Shown: positions 5,521 through 36,675 of the stretch, piece by piece
How positions within the stretch are numbered: the stretch's first letter is position 1
Layout of the letters: the number at the start of each line of letters is the position of its first letter
NCBI GenBank assembly: GCA_041615815.1
Contig: JBFJCP010000022.1
Span: forward strand, 17,444-81,443
Reading direction: 5' to 3'
DNA from: Gemmatimonadales bacterium
GTDB lineage: Bacteria > Gemmatimonadota > Gemmatimonadetes > Gemmatimonadales > GWC2-71-9
DNA: 64,000 nt
The notes under the pieces: generated by a model
Database searches by the model: none
Seen by the model: only the letters and a program-made list of their open reading frames with translations
Told to the model about the DNA's origin: nothing
Program-made: the position numbers and the translations under genes

Positions 5521-5551
5521 GTCCATCGCCGGTATCCTGTTGTTTACGCCC

Positions 5552-7610: not shown

Positions 7611-7680
7611 GCGAATCTCACGAGATGGGTGCCGGCCCAGAATATAGCCCTCGCCCACCCCTCGCCGTAACTTTTTCTCC

Positions 7681-9068: not shown

Positions 9069-9093
9069 CTTTGTAACCGTGGAGGGCAGACGT

Positions 9094-12171: not shown

Positions 12172-12229
12172 TGCGGTGTGACGGCGGGATGGGTCGAGCC
12201 TTCAGCAACCACGTAACGGTTGAGATCTC

Positions 12230-13798
12230 ATGATTAGACGTCATTTCCAGTACTCGGTCAAAGGACTGCTCACGCGGCTGATACTAGTCCCGGCCTTGGC
12301 GTTCGGACTCGTCACAGGCTGTACGAATCTGGACGAGCAACCGACGAGCGTCATCACGCCGGAGAACTTCAACCAGACCGAGGCAGAAATCCTTGGCAGT
12401 CTGGCGTCGGTCTACTCGGTGTTGCGCAGCACGCAGTGGAGTTACTACAACCTGAGCCAGGTGACATCGGACGAAATGATCGTCCCCACCCGCGGGAGCG
12501 ACTGGTTCGATAACGGTCGGTGGCTCGAGATCCACCGGCATACCTGGAATGCCAACAGCCCCTCCGGGCTCGATGACATCAACGGAATGTGGGTCGATGC
12601 CTTCCGAGGCGTCACCCGGGCCAATGTGCTGCTCGAGGCACTGCAGGCTGTCACCGTGGCGGATCAAGCGGCCATCGAAGCCGAGGTCCGCACACTCCGC
12701 GCCTTCTATTACTACATGTTGTTGGACATGTTCGGTGGCGTGCCGCTCGTAACGACGACGGAGATTGGGGCGCGGCCACGCGTCAGCCGCTCCGAAGTCT
12801 TCAGCTTCGTTGAAAGCGAGTTGACCGCGGCTCGCGGAGCGCTGCCCGCCAGTTGGCCGGCGAGCGAACACGGCCGGATCACTCAAGGGGCCGCGGATGC
12901 CATTCTGGCGAGCATGTATCTGAACGCCGGAGTGTTCACGACGGAGGCGCCGAATGCGAACGCGTACAACTCGTGCATGGGTGTCTCGGTGGGGGGCGGA
13001 ACTGCCTGCGACGCCGCCATTGCGGCGGCGGATCGGATCCTGAACTCCGGTCAGTATACCTTGGCCACGGACTGGCGCTCGAACTTCGAGGCCGGCAACT
13101 TTGCCTCGACAGAGAACATCTTCGTCATCAAGAATACGAACCAGACCGGTTTGGGTCTCAACTTGGTGATGCGGGCGCTACACTACAACCAGTTCAACCC
13201 CAGCCCGTGGAACGGCTTCGCGGCCCTGGCGGAGACGTACAACGCCTTCGATGCCGATGACCAACGTCGGGAAATCTTCCTCGAAGGACCGCAGGTGAAT
13301 GTGGAGACCGGCCAGCCAGTCAATGACCGGCAGGGTAATCCATTGGTGTTCACGGTGGACATCATCGATGAGACCCAGGCCGGGGAAGGCGAGGGGACGC
13401 GGGTCCTGAAGTTCTCGCCGGACCCGAACCACGTTGCCGAAAACAACGCGAACGACTTCACGCTCTTCCGCCTAGCCGAGATCATGCTGATCAAGGCCGA
13501 GGCGCTGAACGAGCTGAGCCCGGGCAGCGGCGAAGCGCTTGCCCTGTTGAATACGCTTCGCGAGCGGGTCTTCGAGCCGGACGAGCCGCTGGCGGCCATC
13601 GACCGCGACGTGATTCTGCAGGAGCGGTTGTTTGAGCTCACGTCCGAGGTCAAGCGGCGATTGGATCTGATCCGACATGGCCGGTTCACCGATGCGTGGT
13701 CGTTCAAGCAGGCGGGAGCGCCCCACCTCGTCCTGATGCCGATTCCGCAACTGCAGCTGGACGCCAACCCGGAGCTCACGCAGAATCCCGGGTACTGA
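12230..13798 (+). CDS. susD: RagB/SusD-family nutrient-binding lipoprotein
   Basis: Lipobox LVTGC, LRAFYYYMLLDMFGGVP, FRLAEIMLIKAEAL, ERLFEL...RRLDLIRHG, terminal LTQNPGY; directly after susC. Confidence 0.95.
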   Translation: MIRRHFQYSVKGLLTRLILVPALAFGLVTGCTNLDEQPTSVITPENFNQTEAEILGSLASVYSVLRSTQWSYYNLSQVTSDEMIVPTRGSDWFDNGRWLEIHRHTWNANSPSGLDDINGMWVDAFRGVTRANVLLEALQAVTVADQAAIEAEVRTLRAFYYYMLLDMFGGVPLVTTTEIGARPRVSRSEVFSFVESELTAARGALPASWPASEHGRITQGAADAILASMYLNAGVFTTEAPNANAYNSCMGVSVGGGTACDAAIAAADRILNSGQYTLATDWRSNFEAGNFASTENIFVIKNTNQTGLGLNLVMRALHYNQFNPSPWNGFAALAETYNAFDADDQRREIFLEGPQVNVETGQPVNDRQGNPLVFTVDIIDETQAGEGEGTRVLKFSPDPNHVAENNANDFTLFRLAEIMLIKAEALNELSPGSGEALALLNTLRERVFEPDEPLAAIDRDVILQERLFELTSEVKRRLDLIRHGRFTDAWSFKQAGAPHLVLMPIPQLQLDANPELTQNPGY

Positions 13799-13826
13799 TT
13801 GGGGAAAGTCTCTGTCGTAAGTGTCT

Positions 13827-13868
13827 ACGCCATAGCCTGCTCTCGTCATCGAGGGCAGGCTGTGGCGT
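13827..13868 (+). terminator. Strong 19-bp stem-loop downstream of susD (mRNA stabiliser/attenuator candidate)
   Basis: acgccatagcctgctctcg-tcat-cgagggcaggctgtggcgt: 19 bp including 2 G-U pairs that form only on the + strand RNA. No U-tract. Confidence 0.65.
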
Positions 13869-13921
13869 TGTAGGCCGCGTCCCCTGCGTCATACCCTGCC
13901 CACCCACTCCGACCCAACGAC

Positions 13922-16900: not shown

Positions 16901-17305
16901 CGGGCGTATACCCTTGCCACGACCCTCGTGCGCAACAACGGCGACGGGTCCTTCACGCTTCAGCCGCTGCCCACCGAAGCCCAATTGGCCCCCGTCTACG
17001 GCATTTTGGCCGACGACCTCGATGGAGACGGCACGCCCGACCTGCTCGTGGCGGGCAATTTCGATGCAGTCAAGCCAGAGATCGGCCGGATGAGCGCCAG
17101 CTATGGTCTCTTCTTGCGGGGAGATGGAAGGGGTGGTTTTACGCCGGTGCGGACAGCGGAGAGCGGGTTCTTCGTGCCTGGACAGGCACGGGACGTCCAG
17201 CGCATCGGCACGGAGCGAGGGAGCTTGTACGTGGTGAGCCGCAACAACGACCGACCGCTCGTTTTCCGGGTCGCCGGGAGCGTGTCAGCGCGTGGCGGTC
17301 ACTGA
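13922..17305 (+). CDS. VCBS/FG-GAP repeat + ASPIC/UnbV domain lipoprotein (CRTAC1-like), 1127 aa
   Basis: Lipobox LTSC, NYYNGGGVALGD, many DxxxDGxxD repeats, central NRFAIGATV...SRGFQSSV..LTFGVG..VEWPDG (ASPIC/UnbV), then a second repeat block. Confidence 0.92.
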   Translation: MNRVSGRGLLLAASCVLTSCSADRSAPETRLAEPPEASDQLFSRLPADYTGIRFQNHLSDTRDVNVFTYRNYYNGGGVALGDLTGDGLPELLLTANLGANRLYLNEGEFRFRDVTDEAGIAKKGLWATGVTFADVNGDGLLDIYVCYAGDVAGERRANELYIHQGVGADGVPTFQEMAAAYGIADEGYATHAAFFDYDRDGYLDLYLVNNSPRPVSSFGLRNIRHERHPFGGDRLYRNEGERFRDVSEQAGIFGSEVAFGLGVAVGDVNHDGWPDIYVSNDFFERDYLYINRGDGTFGEQLDRQMPSISFSSMGLDIADVNNDGWLDIYVTDMLPEDDYRLKTTSTFEEWAGYQTKLKNDYHHQFMRNMLHLNNGNGTFSDIGQMAGVARTDWSWSALIADLDLDGYKDIHVTNGILRDVTSQDYVAFLANEETMRAAATSDEVDFLGLIESMSSTALPNYAFRNEGDLTFTNAGAAWGLNTPGFSNGASYGDLDGDGALDLVVNNVNQEASVYRNNARAFLDNRYLQVRLEGEGPNRFAIGATVTLRSGERLLFQELMPSRGFQSSVDYVLTFGVGRVDTVESVTVEWPDGRVSTMTDVATNQRLTIRQKESAGAEPITPSRARPWFVDVTDSVVLGFVHRENTFVDFDRERLMPKMLSMEGPFLAVADVNGDGLDDAFIGGAKDQAGQLLIQQRSGGFVRSNEGLFERDRVSEDLGAVFFDANGDGRRDLYVVSGGSEFSDVAPALQDRLYLNDGRGVFRKTSGHLPSMNISGSRAAPADFDGDGDIDLFVGGRVVPWRYGIDPRSVLLENDGRGRFRDVTRDVAPELPHIGMVTDALWHDVDDDDREDLILVGEWMPITIFRNTGSGKLERVSPPGLERSHGWWNRIVAGDFTGDGRTDFVVGNLGLNTRLRASETQPVTMYVKDFDRNGFVEQILSSYSDGVSYPHVLRDELLRALPGLRERYPTFEAYAKQTVTDIFTPAELDDAVLKRAYTLATTLVRNNGDGSFTLQPLPTEAQLAPVYGILADDLDGDGTPDLLVAGNFDAVKPEIGRMSASYGLFLRGDGRGGFTPVRTAESGFFVPGQARDVQRIGTERGSLYVVSRNNDRPLVFRVAGSVSARGGH

Positions 17306-17766
17306 TCCAGCTGTTTCGGCCGTTCCGGCTGCTTCGTCTTGATGACGATGACGCCGTTGGCGCCCCGCATACCGTACATGGTCGTGCTGGCGGCGTCCTT
17401 CAGCACTTCGATGGATTCGATGTCGTATGGGTTGATCCCGAATAGGGCCCCCCCTGGTCCCGGTTGGATGGGAACACCATCGATCACGTACAGGGGCTCG
17501 TTACTGCCGAGGATCGACGTTCGGCCACGGATGCGTACGGCGATGCCACCGTTGGGAGAGCGGGTAACAACCACCCCGGGGAATCGGTTCGCGAGCAAGC
17601 GTTCGATGGGCTCGCTGGGGTTTTGCTCGATGTCTTCCGCTGTTAGCGTTCGCTCGCCCGGTTGGTTCGGCTCCGGGGCTTCCTGGACGTCCCCCTCGCC
17701 CGTGCTGGCGGCTTGGGCACAGCCAGCCAAGAGCAAGGTGAAGACCAGGGGATGCAATGAAGCCAT
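17299..17766 (-). CDS. Stand-alone TonB-dependent receptor plug-domain lipoprotein (no beta-barrel)
   Basis: Lipobox LAGC; VRIRGRTSILGSNEPLYVIDGVP...INPYDIESIEVLKDAASTTMYGMRGANGVIVIKTK; stop right after the plug. Confidence 0.88.
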   Translation of the reverse strand: MASLHPLVFTLLLAGCAQAASTGEGDVQEAPEPNQPGERTLTAEDIEQNPSEPIERLLANRFPGVVVTRSPNGGIAVRIRGRTSILGSNEPLYVIDGVPIQPGPGGALFGINPYDIESIEVLKDAASTTMYGMRGANGVIVIKTKQPERPKQLDQ

Positions 17767-17850
17767 AGGCTAATATACCCTTTTTGCTCGTGCCGGTGTT
17801 CCACCTGCGGCACGGGCTTTCGACCGTCCATCCGTAAATGGAGACATTGC

Positions 17851-19887
17851 ATGTGGATACGCTGCACGGCCCGTCATGTGTTCGCCGTCATCTGCGGGAT
17901 GCTGATGGCGACCCCCGCGTCTGCCCTCGCGCAATTCGGTGTCGCATCGCCCGATGGTCGGAATCATGTCAGGGTTGAGATCCGTGACGGAAGGCTCCAT
18001 TACAGCGTGCAACGTGACGGGCGGGCGGTGCTTCTTCCGTCGCAGCTCGGATTCGAGTTCCGAGCAGCGCAGCCGCTGCGAGATGACCTCCAGGTGGTGG
18101 ACAGCGCTCGTCAGACGGTCGATCAGACATGGACAACGGTTTGGGGCGAGGTCGCCCGCGTGCGAGATCACCATCATGAGCTGAGCCTCACCGTGGTCGA
18201 GACGTCGCCAGCCGGGCGTCGATTCACCGTGGTGTTTCGTGCGTTCGACGACGGCATAGGCTTTCGCTACGAGTTTCCGGAGCAGCCCGGGCTCGGAGCG
18301 TTCGAAATCACCGAGGAGCTGACCGAGTTTGCCTTGGCGGACGATGCGAGGGCCTGGTGGATCCCGGCCAATCGGTGGAATCGCTACGAGTTTCTGTATT
18401 CCGCATCGCCGGTGAGCCGGATCGACACCGTGCACACCCCGCTCACGCTGGAAGCCCGTGACGGCACACACCTTGTCATTCACGAGGCCAACCTCGCCGA
18501 CTACGCGGCCATGAACCTGGCCCGGACCGGAGACCGGAAGCTCCGAGCCTCGTTGGCCCCCTGGGCCGACGGCGTGAAGGTCCGGGGCCGCGCGCCCTTC
18601 GTGACGCCCTGGCGCACGATCCAGCTAGCGAACCGCGCGGCGGATTTGGCGCCTTCGGTACTGGGACTGAATCTGAATCCGCCCAATGTTCTGGAAAACA
18701 CGGACTGGATCCGGCCCATGAAGTACATCGGGATTTGGTGGGGCATGCACATCGGCACGATGACATGGAGCTCCGGGCCGAAACACGGCGCGACGACCGC
18801 GAATACGGAGGAGTACATGGATTTCGCGGCCGCGAACGGGTTCGGCGGCGTTCTGGTGGAAGGATGGAACCGCGGATGGGACGGTGACTGGATCGCGAAC
18901 GGAGACCTGTTTTCGTTTACTGAGGCGTATCCCGATTTCGACTTGCAGGCGGTCACCGATTATGCACGGGAGCGGGGTGTCACGCTGATGGGCCACAACG
19001 AGACGTCCATGGGCATCGAGAACTACGAGCGCCAGTTGGAGGACGCGTTCGCCCTCTACGAGTCGCTCGGTATGACCGCGGTAAAAACGGGGTACGTGGG
19101 TGACCTGACCCGGGACGGTCACGCGCACCACGGGCAGTACATGGTGCGGCACTGGCGCAAGGTGATCGAAACGGCGGCGCGGCACGGGATCATGGTCAAT
19201 GCCCACGAGCCGATCAAGGACACCGGGGAACGCCGGACCTATCCGAACATGATGACAAGGGAAGGGGCGCGGGGTCAGGAGTACAACGCCTGGGCCGGCG
19301 ACGGCGGCAATCCGCCGGAGCACGAGGCCATCCTCTTCTTCACGCGTCAGTTGGCCGGCCCCATGGATTTCACGCCGGGTGTGTTCGACATTCTGATCGA
19401 GAGCAGCAACGGAACGCCTCGACGCCCCGAGGAATCGCGGATCCGCACGACGCTCGCCAAGCAGCTTGCGCTCTACGTGGTGCTTTACTCACCCCTCCAG
19501 ATGGCGGCGGACCTGCCCCAAAACTACGTGAACCAACCTGCGTTCCAGTTCATCCGGGACGTTGCCGTGGACTGGGAGGACACGCGGGTGCTCGATGGCA
19601 AGATCGGCGACTACGTGGTGGTCGCGCGCCAGGAACGTCGTGGCGAGACGTGGTATGTAGGCGCCATCACCGACGAGGAAGCTCGCACGCTGGATATTTC
19701 GCTTTCCTTCCTCGTCCCCGGACGGCGATACGTCGCCGAGATCTACGCAGACGGCCCTGGAGCCCATTGGCTGCACAACCCGCTGTCCATCGATATTTCA
19801 GAGCGTCCCATCGATGCGGGCTCGCGACTCACCCTCTCGTTGGCCGCTGGCGGAGGACAAGCGATACGGATTCGGCCGGCCAGATAA
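17851..19887 (+). CDS. Glycoside hydrolase family 97 (SusB-like alpha-glucosidase)
   Basis: Signal peptide, FRAFDDGIGFRY, TPWRTIQ, KYIGIWWGMH, VLVEGWN, GHNET, NAHEP, REGARGQEY, GPMDFTPG, LYSPLQMAAD. Confidence 0.95.
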   Translation: MWIRCTARHVFAVICGMLMATPASALAQFGVASPDGRNHVRVEIRDGRLHYSVQRDGRAVLLPSQLGFEFRAAQPLRDDLQVVDSARQTVDQTWTTVWGEVARVRDHHHELSLTVVETSPAGRRFTVVFRAFDDGIGFRYEFPEQPGLGAFEITEELTEFALADDARAWWIPANRWNRYEFLYSASPVSRIDTVHTPLTLEARDGTHLVIHEANLADYAAMNLARTGDRKLRASLAPWADGVKVRGRAPFVTPWRTIQLANRAADLAPSVLGLNLNPPNVLENTDWIRPMKYIGIWWGMHIGTMTWSSGPKHGATTANTEEYMDFAAANGFGGVLVEGWNRGWDGDWIANGDLFSFTEAYPDFDLQAVTDYARERGVTLMGHNETSMGIENYERQLEDAFALYESLGMTAVKTGYVGDLTRDGHAHHGQYMVRHWRKVIETAARHGIMVNAHEPIKDTGERRTYPNMMTREGARGQEYNAWAGDGGNPPEHEAILFFTRQLAGPMDFTPGVFDILIESSNGTPRRPEESRIRTTLAKQLALYVVLYSPLQMAADLPQNYVNQPAFQFIRDVAVDWEDTRVLDGKIGDYVVVARQERRGETWYVGAITDEEARTLDISLSFLVPGRRYVAEIYADGPGAHWLHNPLSIDISERPIDAGSRLTLSLAAGGGQAIRIRPAR

Positions 19888-22800
19888 TGGTGCGGGATTC
19901 ACGTCCTAGCGTCTCCAAAGGGTACGCCGCGGGGCGCAGAGGGAGCCACCGGGGCCCCACCCGAACGGTGCCACTGATCGGCACAGCTGTCCTATTCTTG
20001 ACGGCCTGTGACCGTACGGAGCACCCCCCTCCGCTGTTCGAGCTTCTTCCTCCCGAACGAACCGGGATCGCGTTCGTCAACGAGGTAGTGGACACGCCTG
20101 AGCTCAGCATCCTCAACTATCTCAATTTCTACAACGGTGGCGGTGTGGCGGCTGGTGACATCGATGGCGACGGCCTCGCGGATCTCTACTTCACGTCGAA
20201 CCTGGGGTCCAATCGGCTCTATCGTAACCTGGGCGATTTCCGATTCGAAGACATCACCGAGCGAGCCGGCGCAGGAGCGGTTGAAGGCTGGAAGACGGGC
20301 GTGACGTTCGCCGACGTCAACGGCGACGGATACCTCGACATCTACGTCTCGACCGTCACCCACCTTACGGTGCGTGGACGCAATGTGCTGTTCGTGAACG
20401 ACGGTGATGGCACGTTCACGGACCGGACCGCGGAATACGGACTCGAGCATGTCGGCTACTCGACCCAGGCCACCTTCTTCGACTATGACGAAGACGGAGA
20501 CCTGGACATGTATCTCTTGAACCACTCGACACACGAGGAACGCGGAAGAACTTGGAACCCGCAGCGCGAGACACGCCACCCCAAGGCAGGCGATCGCCTC
20601 TTCCGGAACGAGGGCCTCCGCTTCCTCGATGTCAGCGAGGTGTCCGGCATATACGGCGGTGTCGAAGGGTACGGTTTGGGGGTAGTGGTCAGCGACCTGA
20701 ATGTCGATGGCTGCCCCGACATCTTCGTCGCCAACGATTTTCACGAGAGTGACTTTCTCTACCGCAACAACTGCGACGGCACCTTCACCGAGTCCATCGC
20801 CACCTCAACCGGACACACCAGCTTTTCCTCGATGGGCGTCGATGCCGCCGATTTCACCAACGACGGCAGGACGGACCTCGTGGTTCTCGACATGCTCCCG
20901 GAGCGCGAGGAGATCCTGAAACGCTCCGCTAACGCGGAAGACTTGAATATCTATCAGATGAAGCAGCAGGCCGGTCGTCATTCGCAATACGGCCGAAACA
21001 CGCTTCAGGTGAATCGTGGCCGCGGCCGATTCAGCGAAATCGGCTATCTGGCAGGCGTGTATGCGACCGACTGGAGTTGGGCGGCGCTGTTTTCCGACCT
21101 GGACAACGACGGGTACAAGGACCTGTTCGTCACCAACGGCATCTACCGGCGGCCCAATGATCTGGACTACATCAGCCACGTGGCGGACCGCGCGGTCCAG
21201 GCCGCTCTCGAGCAAGGCATCACGACTGAGCTTCTCACGACGCTGTTGGCAAAGATGCCCCAAGTGCCGATTCCCAACTTCGCCTATCGGAACAACGGCA
21301 ATCTGACCTTCACCGACATGGCCGACCCGTGGGGCTTGGCACAGCCGGGGTTCTCGACGGGCGCCGCCTACGTGGATCTCGACAACGACGGTGCGCTCGA
21401 TCTTGTCGTGAACGACATCAACGGGCCTGCGGGGATCTACCGAAACCGCGCCCGCGAGATCGATGGCCACCATTACCTGACGGTCCACCTGAAAGGAACC
21501 GGGGCGAATACGAGCGGCATTGGCGCAAAGGTCGTCATTCACCATGACGGCCGGATGCAGCTGCTCGAGCAAATGCCAACTCGAGGTTTTCAATCTTCGG
21601 TCGACCCGCGCCTCCATTTTGGATTGGGAGCCTCCCAGCGGATAGACTCGCTGATCGTCATCTGGCCGGACCGTCGTTATCAGGTCCTGGGAGATGTGGC
21701 GACAGACCAGACGGTCACGCTTTCCCAGCAGGACGCGTCTGGCCGGTATGCGTACCGCAAGGACCAGGGGAGCCAGCCGCTGTTCGAGAACGTCACCGCT
21801 CAGCTCACCATCGATGTCAACCATTTGGAGAACAGGTTCTTCGACTACACGCGCCAGCCGCTCATCCCGCACCAGCTCTCCACCGAAGGACCTGCCCTCG
21901 CCGTCGGTGACGTCAATGGCGATGGTCTGGACGACCTCTACGTGGGCGGTGCCAAGTGGCAACCGGGACGGCTCTTGGTTCAGCGGCGTGATGGCACGTT
22001 CGGCCGCGTCAATGAGCGTGTCTTCCGTGCCGACAGTCTGCACGAAGACGTGGACGCGGTGTTCTTCGATGCCAACGGCGATGGATTTCAGGACCTCTAT
22101 GTCGTGAGCGGCGGCAACGAGTTCTGGGGAGATCATGGGGCGCTACAGGATCGGTTGTACGTCAACGACGGACAGGGTCGTTACCATCGAGACGAAGTCG
22201 CCCTCCCAGCATTCTTCGAGAACGGGTCCTGCGTGGTGCCGGGCGACTTCGACGGCGACGGTAACCTCGACCTCTTCGTCGGGAGCCGGGTGATCTCCCG
22301 GCGCTACGGTCTCATCCCACGTAGCTACCTCCTGCAGAACGACGGCATGGGTCGATTCCGCGATGTGACCATAGAGCAAGCGGAGGCGCTGGCTGAAGTG
22401 GGAATGGTGACTTCCGCCACCTGGGTGGATTACGACGACGACGGGCGGCTCGACCTGATCGTCGTTGGAGAGTGGATGCCGATACGGGTTTTTCAGCAGC
22501 AGGATGGCCGGTTCGTAGACCGCACCGTTGAGGCGGGGTTTGCGAAGACGAGTGGCTGGTGGAATCGCGTGGTAGCGGCCGACCTACGAGGGACGGGACG
22601 CCCGGATCTCATTCTCGGCAACCTGGGGTTGAACTCCTACATCCGGGCATCATCCGATGAACCGGCGCGGCTGTACATCCATGATTTCTCTCAGAACGGG
22701 GCGGTGGAGCAGATTCTCACGTTTCCCAAGCATGGCGTGAGCTACCCGATGGCGAGTCGGGACGATCTGATCCGAGCGATTCCGCAACTGCGGAGCCGGT

Positions 22801-23276
22801 ACGCCTCCTATGCCGACTTCGGGGCCAGCCGGATCGAGGATATTTTCTCGGCGTCGGAACTGCGCGAGGCACAGGTCCGGGAAGCGCGTCTGTTTGCTAG
22901 CTCCGTGGCTCTGAACAACGGAGACGGTTCCTTCGATCTCCAGCCGCTACCCATCGAGGCCCAGTACGCCCCGGTCTACGCCGTGCAACCGGAAGACTTC
23001 GATGGTGACGGGCACACCGATCTCGTTATCGCAGGCAATTTCTTCGAGGTTCCGCCCGTGCGCGGGCGATATGATGCCAGCTATGGCCTCATGCTTCGCG
23101 GTGACGGGGCGGGCAGGTTCGCAGCGGTGGACCTGGAGACGAGCAATCTCGTGATCGTTGGACAGGTGCGGGACCTGGAGCTGCTGCAATACGCGGACGG
23201 CAGCCGGCTAATTGTCGTGGCGCGGAACAATGAAACGGTCCAGATTTTCCGTCCGCTCGCGCTCAAACGGCCCTGA
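19887..23276 (+). CDS. Second VCBS/FG-GAP + ASPIC/UnbV lipoprotein, paralog of 13922..17305
   Basis: ATG 19887 overlaps the GH97 stop (TAATG); lipobox LTAC; NFYNGGGVAAGD, TDWSWAALFSDLDNDG, TRGFQSSVD..LHFGLG; same architecture as the first copy. Confidence 0.9.
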   Translation: MVRDSRPSVSKGYAAGRRGSHRGPTRTVPLIGTAVLFLTACDRTEHPPPLFELLPPERTGIAFVNEVVDTPELSILNYLNFYNGGGVAAGDIDGDGLADLYFTSNLGSNRLYRNLGDFRFEDITERAGAGAVEGWKTGVTFADVNGDGYLDIYVSTVTHLTVRGRNVLFVNDGDGTFTDRTAEYGLEHVGYSTQATFFDYDEDGDLDMYLLNHSTHEERGRTWNPQRETRHPKAGDRLFRNEGLRFLDVSEVSGIYGGVEGYGLGVVVSDLNVDGCPDIFVANDFHESDFLYRNNCDGTFTESIATSTGHTSFSSMGVDAADFTNDGRTDLVVLDMLPEREEILKRSANAEDLNIYQMKQQAGRHSQYGRNTLQVNRGRGRFSEIGYLAGVYATDWSWAALFSDLDNDGYKDLFVTNGIYRRPNDLDYISHVADRAVQAALEQGITTELLTTLLAKMPQVPIPNFAYRNNGNLTFTDMADPWGLAQPGFSTGAAYVDLDNDGALDLVVNDINGPAGIYRNRAREIDGHHYLTVHLKGTGANTSGIGAKVVIHHDGRMQLLEQMPTRGFQSSVDPRLHFGLGASQRIDSLIVIWPDRRYQVLGDVATDQTVTLSQQDASGRYAYRKDQGSQPLFENVTAQLTIDVNHLENRFFDYTRQPLIPHQLSTEGPALAVGDVNGDGLDDLYVGGAKWQPGRLLVQRRDGTFGRVNERVFRADSLHEDVDAVFFDANGDGFQDLYVVSGGNEFWGDHGALQDRLYVNDGQGRYHRDEVALPAFFENGSCVVPGDFDGDGNLDLFVGSRVISRRYGLIPRSYLLQNDGMGRFRDVTIEQAEALAEVGMVTSATWVDYDDDGRLDLIVVGEWMPIRVFQQQDGRFVDRTVEAGFAKTSGWWNRVVAADLRGTGRPDLILGNLGLNSYIRASSDEPARLYIHDFSQNGAVEQILTFPKHGVSYPMASRDDLIRAIPQLRSRYASYADFGASRIEDIFSASELREAQVREARLFASSVALNNGDGSFDLQPLPIEAQYAPVYAVQPEDFDGDGHTDLVIAGNFFEVPPVRGRYDASYGLMLRGDGAGRFAAVDLETSNLVIVGQVRDLELLQYADGSRLIVVARNNETVQIFRPLALKRP

Positions 23277-23323: not shown

Positions 23324-24154
23324 TCATCGGAGCGGCCATCGAAGGCCACGGTGCGCTGACGGAGCCGCCTGCGCGTCGGGCTGCGCCGCCTCAGCACGTG
23401 ATTTCCACCACATCTCGACGAGCAGCGCGGCCGGCCCGACAATGAAAAGTGCGTAAAATGGCGCATAGATGACCTCGGCGAGCCGGAGCAGCATCTCGAC
23501 GAACGCGACGAGGAACACGACGACGATCGCGCCTCGCTTGGATGATACCGTGGTCTTTGGGTCCGTGATCATGAACAGCGCGAAGAGCTGGTACATGGGC
23601 CCCGTGATTGGGGCGATCTCCGCTGCGAACGAGCTGTCTGTGAATACAGTCCGCACGTAGGCGAAGACGAAAAAGGACGCTACGTACGCCAACGTGATGT
23701 GTGCGCGCTTGGCTAGCCAAATCGCATTCAGGCCCACCGTCCAAATGACGAGCATCGGCCACAGGTCGTTCCCCCACTGAACGCTCAACGGCGCTACGGC
23801 AAAGGGCGCCAGGAAGAGCAGGGCGCAGATGCCGAAGTTGGATGGATTCCAGAGGTGTCGCCCCTTCATTCGTAGGACGTACTTCGACATGATGGAGAGC
23901 ACCCCACCCACCGCGTAGGGCCACAGCACGGGCGAACGCACGAGGATGGCAATGCTGATGCCGGAGATGTAGGCACTGACGAGCTGCTGCGGCCGGCCCG
24001 TGAGAAGACGCCGTAGCGCGAATTCTGTCGCCATGGCCGAAAAGATCGCGAGGGCGATCGCCTCGTAGCCGCGCAACACCCCGTAAGACCAGTGAGCGCC
24101 GATCAGGATGAGCGTAATGAGAAGTGGCGCCGTCAGGCGCCGGTCGTACTTCAT
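23324..24154 (-). CDS. UnbU / RnfD-NqrB-like integral membrane protein
   Basis: ATG 24154 overlaps the upstream stop (ATGA); 8-9 hydrophobic helices; SAYISGISI, SKYVLR..GRHLWNPSNFG, LFALFMITDPKTT resemble the RnfD/NqrB NxFNP and FMxTDPxT motifs and enediyne UnbU. Confidence 0.8.
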   Translation of the reverse strand: MKYDRRLTAPLLITLILIGAHWSYGVLRGYEAIALAIFSAMATEFALRRLLTGRPQQLVSAYISGISIAILVRSPVLWPYAVGGVLSIMSKYVLRMKGRHLWNPSNFGICALLFLAPFAVAPLSVQWGNDLWPMLVIWTVGLNAIWLAKRAHITLAYVASFFVFAYVRTVFTDSSFAAEIAPITGPMYQLFALFMITDPKTTVSSKRGAIVVVFLVAFVEMLLRLAEVIYAPFYALFIVGPAALLVEMWWKSRAEAAQPDAQAAPSAHRGLRWPLR

Positions 24155-25989
24155 TGCGGCTCCGTGAGGGCGTGCAGAGTGTTGATGGCGGGCGATGGGA
24201 TCGTCTGTACGGTACCGGAGGGCCAGCGGATCACGATACTGTCGACCTGCGACGCGGGGCCCAACCCGTAGTGTGCCCGACGCTGGTTCTGCGAGGCAAA
24301 CCCGTTGCCGCCATCGATCTGCTGAATCTGCTCCGTGCCCGCCCAATAGAGGTGCAGCTCCGCACCGATGGCGCTCCGATTGCTACGGGTGCCCTCCAAC
24401 GCGAACGCGATCCAGCCGTGCTCGGCCCTGACCGTGTTCTTGTAGACCAAGAGTGGCCCGCGCTGATACGCCACCACGACGTCAAGCACGCCGCGGTTCC
24501 AGAGATCGGCGACCGCTACGGCACGCCCATCGTATCGATTGACCACCCCAACGGCCGGGGTCACGTCTTGGAATCGGCCCGTTCCGTCGTTCAGCCACAC
24601 GCGGTCCGCTTGGTAGCCTGAGAGGCTGCGCCCCCGCATGGCGGGCCAATTGCTCGCGTCGGCGATAATGTTGCGATGGCCACCGGCGACCATGGAGTAG
24701 TCGTACCAATAGCTGTCCCGCGTCTCGCCCGAGACGAAGCCGTTGGTCACGAAGAGATCGAGCCAGCCGTCGTTGTTCAAGTCACCAAACTGCGCACCGA
24801 AGGCAAAACCAGCCAACTCCACCCCCATGGCGCCGGCTAGGTTCCGATAACGGGGTGCCCCGCCCGAGTCATGCGTGGGCACCCACAGGTCGTTGCCGTG
24901 GATGAGCACCCCGGGCTCCGAGATGTTGGTCACGTAGAGCGTCCACTCGCCACGGTTCAGGACATCTCCGAACGATGCGTTCATCCCGCTCTTCGGCGTG
25001 CGAGCGACGTTCGCCTCGCGGCCGACCTCGCGGAAGCGCCGGCCTCGATCGTTGATGTACAGCTCGTTGATCCCGAAATCATTCGCGACGAAGAGATCTG
25101 GATCGCCGTCGTGGTCCACATCCGCGGCCGCCGCGGCGAGCGTCCAGCGCTCGCTCGTCAGACCGGTGGCCTCAGCAACTTCTTCGAAGATGCCATCGCC
25201 CCGATTACGGAAGAGATAGTTGCGTCCACCATTCTGCGCATACTCGAAGCTCTCGGGCATCACGCGGGTGTTGGTGAGATTCCACAGATTCAGGTCCGCG
25301 GGATAGAACCCACCCACGAAGAGATCGATCCAGCCATCACGGTCGTAGTCGAACCAGACAGCCGCGTTGGCGTTGATCCAATCGGGCAAGTTGGCGGACT
25401 CAGTGACGCGCGTGAAACCGCTCCCGCGGTCGTTGTGGAACAGCTCGGGGCGACCCCACCGGTACAGGAACAGGTCCTCATAGCCGTCGTTATCGTAGTC
25501 CCCCCACACGGCTCCCATCGAGACACCGGTGGCCCGGTGATTCACCTCCGCCACGCCCAGTGGAGCGGCCACGTCTTCGAAGGTGCCGTCCTGCCGGTTG
25601 CGATAGAGCGCGTTCCGGCTACCCACTGCGCTGTTCGTCACGTACAGGTCCTGCCAGCCGTCGCGGTCGAAATCCGTGACCGAGACGGCGGCACCGTACG
25701 CCGCTACCGCCGGCATGATGGGCTCGAGTTTAGGGTCGAGCATTGGTGGCTGGTGGGTGAACCGGATGCCGGCAGCATCCGAAACCGCTTGGAGTGCGAA
25801 GCCGTAGCGCTCGAGAGCCGCCGGCACGCTCAGTCCGGCATCGTCCGCCCGGGAGCCCGACGAGAAGTACCGGACGGCAACCGGCGTGGCGAGGAGCCCA
25901 AGGAAGACGAACGCCGTGAGAGCCTTGAGAAAGCGACGCGGCCGTGGGGCCGCCGCTCCCTCAACGGTCGATTCTGGGCGCGAGTGCAC
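24151..25989 (-). CDS. CRTAC1-family protein: FG-GAP repeats + C-terminal ASPIC/UnbV domain (UnbV-like)
   Basis: N-terminal hydrophobic anchor, DFDRDGWQD, DYDNDGYED, MPESFEYAQNGG, SNRSAIGAEL...GGNGFASQ..RAHYGLG..IRWPSG. Confidence 0.9.
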   Translation of the reverse strand: MHSRPESTVEGAAAPRPRRFLKALTAFVFLGLLATPVAVRYFSSGSRADDAGLSVPAALERYGFALQAVSDAAGIRFTHQPPMLDPKLEPIMPAVAAYGAAVSVTDFDRDGWQDLYVTNSAVGSRNALYRNRQDGTFEDVAAPLGVAEVNHRATGVSMGAVWGDYDNDGYEDLFLYRWGRPELFHNDRGSGFTRVTESANLPDWINANAAVWFDYDRDGWIDLFVGGFYPADLNLWNLTNTRVMPESFEYAQNGGRNYLFRNRGDGIFEEVAEATGLTSERWTLAAAAADVDHDGDPDLFVANDFGINELYINDRGRRFREVGREANVARTPKSGMNASFGDVLNRGEWTLYVTNISEPGVLIHGNDLWVPTHDSGGAPRYRNLAGAMGVELAGFAFGAQFGDLNNDGWLDLFVTNGFVSGETRDSYWYDYSMVAGGHRNIIADASNWPAMRGRSLSGYQADRVWLNDGTGRFQDVTPAVGVVNRYDGRAVAVADLWNRGVLDVVVAYQRGPLLVYKNTVRAEHGWIAFALEGTRSNRSAIGAELHLYWAGTEQIQQIDGGNGFASQNQRRAHYGLGPASQVDSIVIRWPSGTVQTIPSPAINTLHALTEPQ

Positions 25990-28900
25990 GATGGAAGATC
26001 CGCGGCGTCACGTAGCGGGTGTGAAAAACCTTCCAGTCTTCCGGGTGGCGGCGGTACGCCGGATCGTCCTCCAACCGGCCCGGTGGGCGGGCATAGTCGG
26101 ACATCCCATGATAGGGCAGTGGGAGGACGGTCGTCGAGAAGCCCGTATTGTAGTCTCCGTCTTTCACCCAACCGTCGCCGATGAGCACGAAGTCGCGCGT
26201 CCAGCCTTCCGGTGGGGCAGACGGGGCCGGAAATCGGAGAACCAATTCGTCTCCTGCGTTCATTATAGTATATCGGTCGTCGATAGCCTCGTTCAAAGGG
26301 CGTACGTCGCCGAAGCGGGTATGGAAGCCTACGAGGTCCCGCCACTGTGGTACCGCGGTGACAATCTCGTTGTAGTCCGGAAGCTCGGGTGCGGTACGGC
26401 GAGCCTGCGTCACTTGCGAGAAGCCGCGGTACCGCAGCTCGGCCGTGGTGGGGAGGAGCCGGTGCACAGCGACCGGTGCGTCGGGCTGGCCTACCGTCCA
26501 CGCGATCTGATCCCAATAGATCTCCATGTTGGTGCGCAGACGCACGTGGCGCGGCGTCGCAGGTCGGAAGGCGTGCTGCAGATCGATGAGTATCGTTTTC
26601 GTTTTTCCGGCCGGGAACCCGATATCGGAATCCACGATCGTCCAACCCCCGTTGCCGTCCGGCACCTCGAGCTGCAGCCCGCGCGGCCCAGGATGGTCGC
26701 CCTGGGTGACGGCGACATTGATGGAGGCATCGGTGGGATACACCCATCCGGATGCGACCAGCCAGAGCGGTTCTTCGGTAGGGACATCGGTACCGAGTGC
26801 GATCTCGACATAGTGCTCGCGGGCGATACCCTGGTAGTCACCCAGTTCGAACGTGTCTACGAAACGCTCGTCACGCGTACGGATCAATCCGGTCACGTCG
26901 CGCCCCGCATCATCCCGAACCCAGGCCACGGCACGGAGCGGTTGCATGACGTGCACCGTACGTGCGGGTGGAGGGAGCGTGAAGCGTTCGTCGACGAACA
27001 CCTCAGTACCCGTTGGATGGTCTACGACCATCAGCGAGACGTGATCGAAGAAGTGTGTTTCCCACAGCTCCGCCGTGATGCGCACGTCATAGAACCCGTT
27101 GCGCGGAGCCAACTGATCGCCCCGGATCTTGATCCAGTCCTCGCTGTGGATCACCGTCGCGTCTCCCTGCGCGTTGATCCGCAGACCGAGCGCCGAGCGC
27201 CAGATGAAATCCGTCACGAACTGCATCCCTTCGCCATCGAACGTGAACACCCAGGGACACGAGCCCTTGAGCCGCTGTCGCGTCAGGATCGTCTCGTTGG
27301 TGGCCGAGAGGTTGAACTCGGCTTGGACGGTCCCATTGGGCCAGATGATGCGGGCGACATCCACTTGCGGGTGCTCTCCCAGGCCGACGTGGATGGCAGG
27401 ACCCTGGATCACCTGCTTCTGGTACAGCAGGCCCGCCCTGATCTCGATCTCCCCGCCTATTCCGAACGAATTGATGCGTCGATCCCCGGTAGTCTGTGCT
27501 GCCTGAGGGCGGATGTTGGTCGAGTAATAGTCCGTAGTGCCGCGGTTGACGAGCAACCGTGTCGCACCGTCCGACGACACACCGATCAGGTCGAGCCGAC
27601 CCTCACCGCTGACGTCGGCGATACTCGTGATCTGGATATCCACCGGTGAGAGGAGTCTCAACCCGAGCGCCGTGTTGAGCCACACCCGTGCGCTGGAGGC
27701 CGCGGATGCCACGAGATCGAGATCGCCATTGTTATCCAGATCGGTCACGAAGAGTCGTGTCGCTGAAGGACCGGTCGGTGAGAAGTCCGGCCACCGCGTG
27801 AGCGCTTCGGCTTCCCAGTCCCCCTCCTCGAGCGAGAGCCGGCTCAGTGTCCCGTCTGCCCGGAGGAGCACCAGGTCCAGGATCGCGTCCCGGTTCAGGT
27901 CCGAGGCGGCGATCGCGTGCACGGACCCGAGCGTATCCGGCACCGGGAGTGGCTCGAACTGCGGAACGCGGAAGCGGCCGTTACGGAACACGCGTAGGCG
28001 GCCGTCCGCGTCGAGGAGCGCGGCATCCGGGTCACCATCGGCATCCAGATCGGCCCACACGAAATCACGCACACCGGCCGTTCCCTGAAACTCGGGATAG
28101 AGCTCGAATCGCCCGTCGCCCCGATTGCGGAGCACCACGGGGGCGCCCTCCGTCGCTCCGAGCACGAGATCCAAGTCACCCTCCATGTCCAGGTCGGCGG
28201 CCCAAACGCCGGCGTACGACCCAACGGCCACACCCCGCGGGAAGGCCTCGCGCGTCACATCCGTGAAGGAGCCGCTCCCGTCCTGACGGAGCAGGCGAAG
28301 TCCGCCCGGAGTTGCCAGTGCCAGGTCCATCCGGAAGTCGTCGTTGTAGTCCAGCGGTGCAATAACAGCCGGCGAAAACGGCGCAGTCGCTGGTCCAGCA
28401 GGGAACTCGAACGCCTCGACCCGGCCGGGCTCTGGTGAGATCCACACGGTCCCAGGCCTCGCAGCGACCAGCGCGAGCGGCACCTCGTCGCTGAGCCACA
28501 GCGCACGCACCCAGGCCATGGGTCCAGCCGGTGCCACCGAGAGCGTCTCCGGCAGGAACTGGAGCCCCGTATCCGGCGGGGCCGACTGCGCGGAGGGGTT
28601 GGGCAGCCGCACGAAACGCGTCAGCAGGAGTTCCACTCGGCTCGGCGAGGCGAGCACAGCGTCCTGGTCGTCGGCATAGGCGGGTAGGGGCTGCAACTCC
28701 GCCTGCAGAAACGCGATCTGGGTGGCGGCACGGGCAAATGCGCCTGCCTCACCGGCGCTCAGCACCACCCGAAGCTCGTCGGCGAGGGGGAACGACAGGC
28801 GATCGGCCCGAGCGCCAATGCGGTCGAGCGTCTGGCGGAGCGCCCCCAGGTCCTGCAGTTTGGCGGCGAGGCGCGCGCGTTCGAGCAGGGCCACCAGATT

Positions 28901-29491
28901 CTCGGGCTGCACGGCCAGAATCCGCTCGATCAGCTGCGCTGCGTCTACGTCGCTCTCGGGGCGATCCTCTTGTTCGACGACCTGGGCCAGGAGATAGAGG
29001 GCCCGGAGGCTTCCGGGGTCGAGTTCGACGGCGCGCCGAAGGTGTTCCGTGGCCGCGTCGGGGCGCCCTCGCTCGCGCGCGACGAGCGCGGAGATAAACA
29101 GGATGCGGCTGTCCTCGGGAGCAAGCCGGCGTGCTTCTTCGAGCCGGTCCGCCGCCTGGTCCAATTCGCGTCGTTGGAGCGCGATCATCCCGCGATTGGC
29201 CCAGCCGGCCGGCTCTCGGGGGATGAGTTCCGTGAAGCGCGCGAAGGCGGCTTGGGCGAGCCCGCTCTCCCCGGCCTGAGCGGCCGCCACACCGCGGTAG
29301 AAGGCCGTAACGGCATCCGCGTAGGTGGGGGACGAAGGGTCGGGGAGATCGCGCCCGCAGGCCGCTGCACCCAAGGCGAACACGAGCGCGGCGGAAGTGT
29401 GAAGAGCGACTCTCAACGGGCCTGACCGATGTTCCTGGGGAAGTTGCTCAAGGAGTTTTGGGAAGCTAGATCCGTGGGTGAGAGGGCGCAA
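25961..29491 (-). CDS. TPR + FG-GAP + ASPIC/UnbV + uncharacterised C-terminal domain lipoprotein
   Basis: Lipobox-like AAAC, N-terminal TPR-like helices, ADLDMEGDLD/ADLDADGDPD repeats, RRINSFGIGGEIEI..HVGLG..RIIWPNG, then KGSCPW and a ~430 aa tail. Start codon uncertain. Confidence 0.85.
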   Translation of the reverse strand: MRPLTHGSSFPKLLEQLPQEHRSGPLRVALHTSAALVFALGAAACGRDLPDPSSPTYADAVTAFYRGVAAAQAGESGLAQAAFARFTELIPREPAGWANRGMIALQRRELDQAADRLEEARRLAPEDSRILFISALVARERGRPDAATEHLRRAVELDPGSLRALYLLAQVVEQEDRPESDVDAAQLIERILAVQPENLVALLERARLAAKLQDLGALRQTLDRIGARADRLSFPLADELRVVLSAGEAGAFARAATQIAFLQAELQPLPAYADDQDAVLASPSRVELLLTRFVRLPNPSAQSAPPDTGLQFLPETLSVAPAGPMAWVRALWLSDEVPLALVAARPGTVWISPEPGRVEAFEFPAGPATAPFSPAVIAPLDYNDDFRMDLALATPGGLRLLRQDGSGSFTDVTREAFPRGVAVGSYAGVWAADLDMEGDLDLVLGATEGAPVVLRNRGDGRFELYPEFQGTAGVRDFVWADLDADGDPDAALLDADGRLRVFRNGRFRVPQFEPLPVPDTLGSVHAIAASDLNRDAILDLVLLRADGTLSRLSLEEGDWEAEALTRWPDFSPTGPSATRLFVTDLDNNGDLDLVASAASSARVWLNTALGLRLLSPVDIQITSIADVSGEGRLDLIGVSSDGATRLLVNRGTTDYYSTNIRPQAAQTTGDRRINSFGIGGEIEIRAGLLYQKQVIQGPAIHVGLGEHPQVDVARIIWPNGTVQAEFNLSATNETILTRQRLKGSCPWVFTFDGEGMQFVTDFIWRSALGLRINAQGDATVIHSEDWIKIRGDQLAPRNGFYDVRITAELWETHFFDHVSLMVVDHPTGTEVFVDERFTLPPPARTVHVMQPLRAVAWVRDDAGRDVTGLIRTRDERFVDTFELGDYQGIAREHYVEIALGTDVPTEEPLWLVASGWVYPTDASINVAVTQGDHPGPRGLQLEVPDGNGGWTIVDSDIGFPAGKTKTILIDLQHAFRPATPRHVRLRTNMEIYWDQIAWTVGQPDAPVAVHRLLPTTAELRYRGFSQVTQARRTAPELPDYNEIVTAVPQWRDLVGFHTRFGDVRPLNEAIDDRYTIMNAGDELVLRFPAPSAPPEGWTRDFVLIGDGWVKDGDYNTGFSTTVLPLPYHGMSDYARPPGRLEDDPAYRRHPEDWKVFHTRYVTPRIFHRALAPRIDR

Positions 29492-33945: not shown

Positions 33946-34179
33946 GCTACGTTGGTCTCCGATCGATCATGGGTTCTGGCTGAGCGGGAAAACGTAGTCT
34001 TGCTTCGGCGCCCAGACAAGAATGCTTCTCTGTGACCTCTCTGTCCTCTTTGGTGCCCACTGTGGCCACCCCACGTCCCGCCGATGGCAAACGCGAACTT
34101 GTCATCCTCCGTGTCGCGGAGCTGGTTCACGTCGCGTACATTAACCGCCTCGACCACAATTTTCCCTGACCAGGCTGGG

Positions 34180-36675
34180 ATGGTATCACCGATGCAGATG
34201 CTCGCATCTCTCATAGTCATGCAGTCCCTGTTCCAAGCGCTGCAGATGCCGGTCCTGGAGTTTCCGGAGGCCGGGCTGGACGATCCGGCGGCGTACGAGG
34301 GGTATTCGACGCGGTTCTTCCGAGATTCTCGTGGCAACACGCTGCAGATCTATCGCAATGACCGGGACGGTCGTGTCGTCCACGTGTGGGCGGACGCCGC
34401 GAACCAGAGCGCCGCGTTCACCGTTCGCGACGTCGCAGGTCGTCCGGCCGCTGCAGGCTGGGGCGGACCGGGGGCCGCGACTGAGTCGTACGGGCGCTTC
34501 CGCGTGCTACGGCACCGCCTCGCCTGGGAGAGCAGCGGCCTCGAGATCGGATGGTTCCTGCTCGGAACCATGCGTCAGGAGCGGGATTTCCAGTATCTGG
34601 AGTGGCACCGGAAGCCCTACGCCGATTCACCCTTCATGCTAAGCGAGCTGACCGGCCTGATGAACAGCCTGGATCGGCTTCCAGCCGGGGAGCGCGCGCG
34701 CCACATCTCACTCTTGGGTGCCCGAGATCTCGAGGAGCTTCGGACCCGGTTGCAGCCCCATGTCACGCTGACCCAGGATGAGGCGGAATGGACGGTCTTG
34801 GTCGAACATACGAGCCTGGATGGACGGAACCACTTGACGCTCGAGCTGCGAGGAGATCCGATGGCCTCCGCCGCTTCGTTGTCAGGTGACCGGGTTTCCG
34901 TACGGGCGCGCTCCGGCCAACGAATCGAGCTCGACGTGACCGTGACCACGGATGCCGACGCGCTAACTCCGCTCGGCCGCGAGCGGCTGTTCAACGACGC
35001 TTTCAACGATTACTACGCACGCCAGCGGAGCAGAGCCGAGAGCCTCATGACGACCCAGACCGTGGAAGAGGTCGAAGGGGACTCCTGGCTCAACGCGTTT
35101 CGGCGCTTCGAGCGCCAAGTGCGCGGTCTCGAGCTCCTGAGCTCGGAGGAGAAGCTGATCGCGTCCATGCCGAACTACGCGACGTACTTCGGGCGCGATC
35201 AGATGATGTCCGCGCTCATGCTCGAGCCCGTTTCGTCGGTGGATCTGCAGGAGCTCGTGATCGCAAGCGTGCTCCGAAAGCTCGCCCCATCGGGCAATGC
35301 GAGCCACGAGGAGGCCCTGGGGGGCCAAGCGATTCGCGAGAACGCCGCCGAGTACAGTGCGCTGATCCGGGCGTGGGACGAGGAGCGGGAAAGGAATGCG
35401 GACGCTGCCGCCGGTCACCTTGCGCGCGCGAGGCAGCTGCTGGGGGATCTGCAAGCCGTGCGGGAGAACTACCGCATGGTGGATGACGATTTCCAACTGC
35501 CCGTGCTCGTTGCGCGATACCTCTCTCGCCTGGACGTGCCGGCAGAGAGAAAACGACGCTTTCTGACCAACCCTGCGGGGCCCGGCCAGTCACGTCTCGA
35601 TGCACTCATGCGGAACCTTGCCTTCGTGGCCGAGCTGGCGCGGCCCTACGCCCAGCAGCCGGTGGCCACCAACCTGGTGAGCTTCTTTCACCGTGATGAC
35701 GAAGGGTGGCTTCCAGGCAGCTGGCGCGACAGTCGTGTGGGATACGGCAATGGTCGCTTTGCCATGGACGTGAACGTGGTGTGGGTCCCCCAGGGCCTGG
35801 AGGCGCTGGAGCGCATCCTGGAAGCGGTGAACGCGCTCGGCCTTTCCGTGGAGCCTGTGCTGGCGCGTATGCCGGACGCCTCCGCCCTGGAGACATATCT
35901 CCATGATCCGGCTGCGCGACGTGCGGCGATCGCCACGTGGCGCGGCGCCCGTGGGCACTTCGAAGTGCGGCTGGAGCCCGATGAGATCCGCCAGCGCGTG
36001 GACCGATTGCTGGAGCCCCTGCCGGCCGCGGAAACTGACTACTGGCGACACCGCCTCGACGAAGGTGGTGCCGCCCTACGGCCGCTCACGTTTCTGGCGC
36101 TTTCGTTGAACGACGCAGGCCAGCCAATCGCCGCCGCCAGTACCGACCCAGCCACCGAGCTTTTTCTGGAGGATTACACCGAAGAGATCCTAGCGGGCAC
36201 GGCGGATCCGGCGGCCGTGCTCGACATGCTCGACGCTATCGTGCGACCCTATCCCGTGGGGCTCTTCGTCGAGGGACTCGGTCCGGTCGTCGCAAACGAT
36301 GCGTACACGAGTGCGCTCGTGCAGCAGCAGTTCCGGGACGACCTCTATCATTCGCCCCGGGTGGTCTGGGGGCGCGAGGTGAACCTCCTGCTCCTGGGGC
36401 TGGCTCGGCAGATCGATGCCGCCTACGGCGCGACCGGTCGGCTGCGAGATCAGCGCGGGGTGGTTCGCTCGTACGTCCGTACGCTGCGCGAGGTGCTGGA
36501 GACGATGCAGGAAGCGGTCGAGGCCTCGGGCCTCAGCCACAACGAGCTCTGGAGTTACCGGATCCAGGGCGGTACGCTCCGTCCGGTGCGTTACGGTGTG
36601 AGCTCCGACATCCAGCTCTGGAACGTGACCGATCTCGCCGTTCGTTTCTTGTTGGACCGGTTGCCGCCACAGTGA
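34180..36675 (+). CDS. Uncharacterised protein with six-hairpin glycosidase / glycogen-debranching-like motifs
   Basis: YATYFGRDQMMSALM, SHEEALG, NYRMVDDDFQLP, GSWRDSRVGYGNGRFAMDVN, YHSPRVVWGRE, HNELWS, SSDIQLW; hydrophobic N-terminus. Start is among ATG 34180/34192/34198. Confidence 0.7.
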   Translation: MVSPMQMLASLIVMQSLFQALQMPVLEFPEAGLDDPAAYEGYSTRFFRDSRGNTLQIYRNDRDGRVVHVWADAANQSAAFTVRDVAGRPAAAGWGGPGAATESYGRFRVLRHRLAWESSGLEIGWFLLGTMRQERDFQYLEWHRKPYADSPFMLSELTGLMNSLDRLPAGERARHISLLGARDLEELRTRLQPHVTLTQDEAEWTVLVEHTSLDGRNHLTLELRGDPMASAASLSGDRVSVRARSGQRIELDVTVTTDADALTPLGRERLFNDAFNDYYARQRSRAESLMTTQTVEEVEGDSWLNAFRRFERQVRGLELLSSEEKLIASMPNYATYFGRDQMMSALMLEPVSSVDLQELVIASVLRKLAPSGNASHEEALGGQAIRENAAEYSALIRAWDEERERNADAAAGHLARARQLLGDLQAVRENYRMVDDDFQLPVLVARYLSRLDVPAERKRRFLTNPAGPGQSRLDALMRNLAFVAELARPYAQQPVATNLVSFFHRDDEGWLPGSWRDSRVGYGNGRFAMDVNVVWVPQGLEALERILEAVNALGLSVEPVLARMPDASALETYLHDPAARRAAIATWRGARGHFEVRLEPDEIRQRVDRLLEPLPAAETDYWRHRLDEGGAALRPLTFLALSLNDAGQPIAAASTDPATELFLEDYTEEILAGTADPAAVLDMLDAIVRPYPVGLFVEGLGPVVANDAYTSALVQQQFRDDLYHSPRVVWGREVNLLLLGLARQIDAAYGATGRLRDQRGVVRSYVRTLREVLETMQEAVEASGLSHNELWSYRIQGGTLRPVRYGVSSDIQLWNVTDLAVRFLLDRLPPQ

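Follow-up and report, generated by a model that had tools for sequence, protein, structure and literature searches.

What does a pair of genes known from enediyne cassettes do in a genome in which no enediyne polyketide synthase (PKSE) was found? The question is raised by a three-gene operon, T-V-U, in a Gemmatimonadales bacterium (assembly GCA_041615815.1, 95.7% complete), within a stretch of 64,000 nucleotides (the window; contig JBFJCP010000022.1, positions 17,444 to 81,443). Our favored answer, to which we assign a probability of about 0.5, is that T-V-U encodes a flavin-dependent, one-way redox module of the cell envelope. Its genes, in window coordinates, are as follows.

25961-29491, minus strand: T, an open reading frame (ORF) of 1176 aa from the first TTG, with tetratricopeptide repeat (TPR), FG-GAP, and ASPIC/UnbV domains (Pfam).
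24151-25989, minus strand: V, an ORF of 612 aa with FG-GAP and ASPIC domains (Pfam), a member of the E4/UnbV clade.
23324-24154, minus strand: U, an ORF of 276 aa, a membrane protein of the RnfD/NqrB fold resembling E5/UnbU.

The T and V ORFs overlap by 29 nt, V and U are joined by an ATGA overlap, and an SSF symporter gene at 29641 diverges from the operon. This agrees with an earlier note on the same DNA, made from the letters alone, which had described a tightly overlapping minus-strand trio—a TPR-FG-GAP-ASPIC lipoprotein, an anchored UnbV-type protein, and an ATGA-coupled membrane protein—beside a divergent Na+/sugar symporter. Its description of the membrane protein was likewise correct, with NPSNFG beginning at residue 103 of U, FMITDPKT at residue 194, and no [ST]GAT (a search of U for [ST]GA[ST] was negative). 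Scans for promoters and terminators gave signal near the shuffle level. The best named relatives of U belong to Gemmatimonadota (78 to 82% identity).

The trio has been kept together over a wide phylogenetic range, as the note had supposed. At least 555 of 600 stretches from a genome-contig scan encode a U relative, and the best 80 loci, a set biased to close relatives, span at least six phyla (Acidobacteriota, 65; Gemmatimonadota, 4; Balneolota, 4; Rhodothermota, 3; Pseudomonadota, 1; Verrucomicrobiota, 1; unassigned, 2). Among these, the loci that could be tested show V next to U in 78 of 79 cases and T immediately upstream of V-U in 62 of 67; of the other five, three have a displaced or more distant T and two have none in view. 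Downstream of U, 55 of 74 loci carry one more ASPIC paralogue. An even sample of the bacterium's own phylum gave a U-family match in 54 of 301 genomes, and we compared 40 loci (39 of the matching genomes plus G001), 28 belonging to the U clade and 12 to a sister family. V adjoins U in 27 of the 28 U-clade loci, the remaining one being cut by a contig end, and T lies within the locus in 18. Genome-wide, the C-terminal domain of T is present in 35/38 U-clade genomes compared to 1/36 others. V-U is thus a fixed core, and T is a near-constant partner with a mobile gene. Three fusion proteins, in which U is followed by a linker with a hydrophobic segment and a V-type domain, support a physical partnership and suggest that V lies outside the membrane:

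P0058: 881 aa, two records.
P0069: partial.
Locus L135: genomic frame.

Three other candidates (P0003, P0008, and P0046) were left out of the count, because their joins seem to stem from read-through or a frameshift.

What kind of protein is U? It matches PF03116 at 36.5 bits (Pfam cut-off, 27.7) and scores 29.8 bits against TIGR01946 rnfD, whose cut-off is 207. A single-sequence search of the PDB gave no match; a profile search did. The AlphaFold model (predicted local distance difference test score, 91) has the ten-helix RnfD fold, the chain ending after the helices; the top 15 Foldseek rows are all RnfD/NqrB, and the model aligns with 8rbq_D over 250 residues at Z 23.2 and a root mean square deviation of 4.0. 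The passages of PMC10643135 on NqrB of Vibrio cholerae place riboflavin near the cytoplasmic side and flavin mononucleotide (FMN) near the periplasm and list T162, G198, N200, N203, A205, F342, and D346 as riboflavin contacts; those of PMC9588780 on RnfD of Clostridium tetanomorphum name Asn124 and Asp248 at the riboflavin site. In profile alignments, with positions counted by hand and pocket correspondence taken at the sequence level, the NqrB/RnfD contacts fall on S64, G98, H100, N103, S105, F194, and D198 of U. The T162, N203, F342, and D346 positions are kept, and that of N200 is His. Across 69 U relatives, D198 never varies, 66 have N103 and 66 have H100, and position 64 is Ser or Thr in 65 of 67; all five E5 proteins likewise carry S/T, H, N, and D at these positions. 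The loop that bears the FMN-threonine measures 22 to 30 residues in 49 short proteins compared to 64 to 75 in four RnfD/NqrB proteins. We infer that the inner flavin pocket survives in U and that the covalent flavin of the outer side is gone. The earlier note had left redox, transport, and sensing functions side by side, and the kept pocket residues favor the first.

V begins with a hydrophobic anchor, carries five Dx[DN]xDG motifs, and is 55 to 83% identical across phyla. It groups with E4: an E4 query from the C-1027 cluster scores 149 to 186 bits on full-length V-clade proteins compared to 44 to 86 bits on other ASPIC proteins of the same loci; V, E4, and the fused V domains form one clade (Shimodaira-Hasegawa-like approximate likelihood ratio test [SH-aLRT] support of 97 in a quick tree of 29 rows); and 36 positions are common to V and E4 and absent from two generic ASPIC paralogues. 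CRTAC1 (9etn; E 2.4e-19) is the only strong relative of solved structure. CRTAC1 and other FG-GAP-ASPIC propellers share these domains with V and T, but V forms a distinct clade tied to U, and T adds TPRs and a C-terminal domain without a named family. A twin-arginine signal considered for V was dropped, its relatives being without one.

As for T, its second TTG (29416), the probable translation start, gives a signal of 19 residues closed by a lipobox Cys, which 81% of 32 aligned relatives share, so that T is predicted to be a lipoprotein. Its C-terminal ~440 aa matched no Pfam family and, in the Atlas, only hypothetical clusters. Four Cys/His positions of this domain are conserved in relatives (C745, 81/81; H893, 87/87; H825, 85/87; H1128, 82/87), by which it may hold a metal. 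In a profile search of the PDB, the domain matched replication factor C weakly (E 6e-4, 116/442 positions), probably by chance.

In the mechanism that we propose, a small oxidoreductase of the envelope would be built on V and U as its obligate pair, with T as the third subunit in most cases. U would be an RnfD-fold inner-membrane protein that retains a non-covalent riboflavin site and has lost the outer-face loop for covalent FMN. Electrons would most likely travel through it in one direction only, linking the outer face with a pool in the membrane or cytoplasm, and the ion-pumping cycle of Rnf and Nqr would play no part. V would be anchored beside U on the outer face, docking at the site vacated by the FMN loop, and its propeller face would present the substrate or a redox partner. 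T would contribute a TPR scaffold and, in its Cys/His domain, a possible metal holder. Enediyne clusters would use the same V-U core as E4 and E5, with E3 in place of T, and in the bacterium's own phylum the substrate may arrive via SusC/D transporters.

How, then, does the module relate to the ion-pumping complexes whose fold U shares? The earlier note had reported no Rnf or Nqr genes, which is true of the locus and not of the genome: contig C66 opens with the end of nqrD, followed by nqrE, nqrF, and apbE. No protein of the assembly other than U matches PF03116; nqrB and nqrC were not found there (nqrA was not searched for), and PF04205 (FMN-binding) gave no match. One could therefore suppose that U supplies the NqrB or RnfD that the respiratory complex of this genome seems to lack. 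We consider this very improbable: C66 breaks inside nqrD, and nqrA to nqrC would fall in the gap; four related genomes (G001 and G002, of the same genus, G010, and G031) each encode a full-scoring RnfD/NqrB (336 to 362 bits) and a separate U, which makes U a paralogue of RnfD/NqrB; and U lacks the FMN loop. Moreover, a 100/100 branch divides all short proteins from RnfD/NqrB in trees with outgroups of six RnfD rows and no NqrB (first tree) and three RnfD and one NqrB (second tree). The note had named both a grouping of U with RnfD and the remainder of such an operon elsewhere as grounds for rejecting a separate system; the nqr genes do exist elsewhere, but U stands apart. U and RnfD/NqrB thus have in common the fold (Z 21 to 23) and the riboflavin-pocket positions, and differ in the ~50-residue FMN-threonine loop missing from U, His for Asn200, the long separating branch, the absence of partner Rnf/Nqr subunits from the operon, and a score far below the rnfD cut-off.

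A precedent is found in the Nqr/Rnf-like complexes, for which the relevant passages of PMC10979944 and PMC8238504 describe a missing flavinylation site, an apparent non-covalent flavin site that is kept, and a proposed one-way flow of electrons. As in the U module, an RnfD-like membrane domain without the flavinylated threonine is combined with an extracytoplasmic partner. Unlike these complexes, U has no cytosolic nicotinamide adenine dinucleotide (NAD)-binding domain and no FMN-binding or ApbE neighbor (the apbE of this genome sits in the nqr operon), and it is partnered by ASPIC propellers in which no flavinylation motif is conserved. The sister family of short RnfD-like proteins, found without V in 12 own-phylum loci (L136 to L147), keeps Asn where U and E5 have His. 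A gene of the apbE cluster is adjacent in 12/12 of these loci (Pfam checked for one), preceded by an FMN-binding gene whose motif occurs in at least seven and was Pfam-confirmed in 2/2 tested. These loci resemble the published Nqr/Rnf-like complexes, and by analogy their neighbors favor a redox reading of U. In its own right, this operon of FMN-binding protein, apbE, and short RnfD-like protein without an NAD-binding domain (e.g., L139:7954-10446) amounts to the Nqr/Rnf-like flavinylation system in minimal form. Also without V, a Metabacillus plasmid (L107:7330-8717) couples a short RnfD-like gene to a redoxin gene.

The kinship with enediyne genes that the note had proposed for V and U is well founded. 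Of 49 plasmid records matched by U, 46 are from Streptomyces, and most are annotated as enediyne biosynthesis protein, UnbU, or RnfD. In the C-1027 region on plasmid SGLP1 (NZ_CP013739.1), a DUF1702, a CRTAC1-family, an RnfD-like, and a PKS gene are consecutive, and we take these, from gene order, to be E3, E4, E5, and E. The cassette named in PMC5181780 agrees with these labels, and PMC9992847 counts E4 and E5 among three conserved, function-unknown genes of the minimal enediyne cassette. U is 32% identical to C-1027 E5 over 235 residues, and the two form separate subclades, each supported at 100/100. The T-V-U operon and the cassette have the same two families in the same order and tightly coupled, and U and E5 have H-x-x-N-P-S-N, TDP, and the loop deletion in common; what differs is that T lies upstream and that no E3, PKSE, or thioesterase was found. 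Specifically, searches of the genome and the 80 + 40 loci for PKSE, E3, E10, E8, and E11 found none beyond fatty-acid-type ketosynthase (KS) and acyltransferase matches. The KS matches in the genome sit in frames of 413 to 562 aa; a C-1027 PKSE query gave partial matches of at most 90 bits there, and an E10 query none. A tblastn search with C-1027 E3 matched neither the genome nor the 120 loci and did match L106 and L108; a PF08012 search for E3 (DUF1702) was blank, but its positive control was equally silent. With the pair present and PKSE, E3, E10, E8, and E11 not found, T-V-U is not an enediyne cassette, in line with the note's remark that no enediyne PKS was linked. The homology and gene order might still mark what is left of a cluster for enediyne or related biosynthesis, a reading to which we give hardly any weight in view of these missing genes (with a PKSE in the unassembled 4% as the one proviso), the at least 555 relatives among 600 stretches, and the cross-phylum identity of V. 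As separate observations, L106:8035-13729 (Serratia plasmid NZ_MT039191.1) holds E3-E4-E5 homologues beside acyl carrier protein and discrete ketosynthase genes, with no PKSE within 24.6 kb, and L108:8847-18795 (Sinorhizobium meliloti pSymA, NZ_CP021805.1) holds a complete-looking E3-E4-E5-PKSE-thioesterase cassette.

The surroundings of the operon raise a further question, namely, whether the module serves sugar metabolism. The window is a sugar island with two GMC oxidoreductases and their small subunits, Gfo/Idh/MocA, a 3-keto-disaccharide hydrolase, four SSF symporters, SusC/D, and glycoside hydrolases (GH) of families GH3, GH4, GH13, and GH97, arranged on both sides of the operon.

314-8502 and 40608-63134: 3-ketoglycoside-type genes, including a xylose-isomerase-like barrel, GH3, GH4, GH13, PfkB, and SSF.
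9079-23276: SusC/SusD, then two proteins of ~1130 aa with an FG-GAP-ASPIC-FG-GAP layout (a large ASPIC type found together with U across the phylum), a small protein with a TonB plug domain, and GH97.

A module specific to glycoside catabolism might, for example, re-oxidize periplasmic sugar dehydrogenases or process sugars imported by SusC/D, and besides the island itself, a SusC/D-linked large ASPIC protein tracks U (32/38 U-clade genomes compared to 5/36 others). We nevertheless regard such a specialization as improbable. The linkage that marks a 3-ketoglycoside (Gul-type) locus (to GMC, Gfo/Idh/MocA, symporter, or glycosidases) is present in the window and rare near U elsewhere: the symporter, isomerase (Hyi), amylase, and GH97 each occur near U in 1/80 loci and in 1 to 3 of the 28 own-phylum loci. 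The dehydrogenase small subunit, PF13618, does not discriminate (37/38 compared to 31/36 genomes), and enediyne clusters employ the same pair in a non-sugar setting. The earlier note's link to the symporter is local, and its broader suggestion of service to glycoside catabolism is weakly supported; in the own phylum, SusC/D genes lie near V-U in 11/28 loci. SusC occurs near U in 2/80 loci, and SusC/D or other TonB-dependent receptors in 7/80. A link of the module to imported substrates is thus possible in the own phylum and is not a general property.

The same receptors would fit an unlikely, though somewhat better placed, alternative, in which U would let an ion or small solute across the membrane as a channel or carrier, V and T would form its outer binding cap, and the old pocket would bind the solute. 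Urea and Amt channels are the next-best fold matches (Z 9 to 12; urea transporters, Z 12.4), FMN and the partner subunits are both gone, and His replaces Asn200. Yet RnfD/NqrB is a far better match, the polar residues that are conserved belong to the flavin pocket, and ApbE and FMN-binding genes accompany the sister proteins. Less probable than either is a sensor or assembly platform, with V and T binding Ca2+ or a ligand and U relaying or anchoring, perhaps for other ASPIC proteins. ASPIC matches number 1 to 14 per U-clade genome (38/38) and are lacking in 17/20 U-negative genomes, and TPRs and Dx[DN]xDG motifs would suit scaffolding (PMC3123361); on the other hand, no regulator is found among the frequent neighbors, U has no cytoplasmic output domain, and the invariant D198 and conserved N103 would be needless in a purely structural role.

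Several observations weigh against the redox module that we favor. Redox accessory genes near U are almost confined to Acidobacteriota (30/31), and a search of this genome did not turn up the NapH-like, YtkA-like, His-rich, and His-start genes. Only 11/28 own-phylum loci have T collinear with V-U, and the C-terminal domain of T was not found in 3/38 U-clade genomes. The compared genomes are kin, so that the counts overstate independence, and the placement of U plus E5 relative to the ApbE-type sister group is not resolved by the tree (54/48). Within the pocket, the position of NqrB G198 (U G98) is Gly in only 41/69 relatives and, together with His for Asn200, this may mean that it holds another ligand; the same Asn and Asp residues have also been proposed as Na+ sites in RnfD (PMC9588780), and the fold is also common to urea and ammonia channels. 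Finally, no conserved flavinylation or heme motif was found in V or T of aligned relatives, and the module therefore has no identified second redox center.

The neighborhoods of U hold further genes of possible redox or metal function. A NapH-like Fe-S membrane protein is encoded near U in 32/80 loci, a protein starting with a His motif in 32/80, a His-rich membrane protein in 27/80, and a YtkA-like protein in 25/80; in Acidobacteriota these often precede the trio. At L080:1452-4606 and in ~30 other Acidobacteriota loci, they form a four-gene cassette upstream of T (His-rich, YtkA-like, NapH-like, and His-start) in which the His-rich protein is without a Pfam family, M[ST]HxGM occurs in 18/18 YtkA-like proteins, and the function is possibly copper handling. 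A membrane multiheme cytochrome lies near U in 4/40 own-phylum loci. In L017:201-12974, T-V-U is preceded by a gene for a TPR protein and, before that, by two additional relatives of V, and it is followed by genes for an ABC binding protein and a SCO1-PCuAC fusion. In the window, 38372-40573 encodes a multiheme cytochrome c fused to TPRs, which occurs near U in 1/80 and 2/28 loci, and 34084-36675 is an 863-aa ORF without a Pfam or NCBIfam match and with homologues in related loci. A flavin adenine dinucleotide halogenase-like gene lies near V-U in L117, L118, L119, L124, L129, L130, and L132, six of these seven also having radical S-adenosylmethionine and asparagine-synthase-like genes. A halogenase-like gene likewise occurs in 4/80 loci.

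What would such a module mean for the bacteria that carry it? The stand-alone form is common in Acidobacteriota, Gemmatimonadota, Balneolota, and Rhodothermota and therefore probably has a basic envelope function, and our literature searches, whose coverage lay outside subscription papers, found no paper on a stand-alone UnbU/UnbV (RnfD/ASPIC) pair. Annotation hides it under the labels RnfD and CRTAC1 (RefSeq already labels E5 as RnfD), and a lone RnfD annotation is no indicator of an Rnf pump. For the E4/E5 question, the present work offers a residue-level prediction, namely, that E5 and U keep the NqrB riboflavin pocket (D198, N103, and H100 of U), and the natural U-V fusions offer single-chain objects of study. 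E3, E4, and E5 reportedly act in diiodotetrayne formation. We tentatively put forward a wider claim, in which V-U(-T) would be an undescribed, widespread class of envelope oxidoreductases. In it, a descendant of RnfD with riboflavin as its only flavin would be coupled directly to an FG-GAP/ASPIC propeller acting as the catalyst, the unnamed domain of T would carry a metal site, and enediyne pathways would have recruited E4/E5 for outer-face oxidative steps. If this is true, E5 would conduct electrons as a flavoprotein, and CRTAC1-like propellers of bacteria could act as enzymes.

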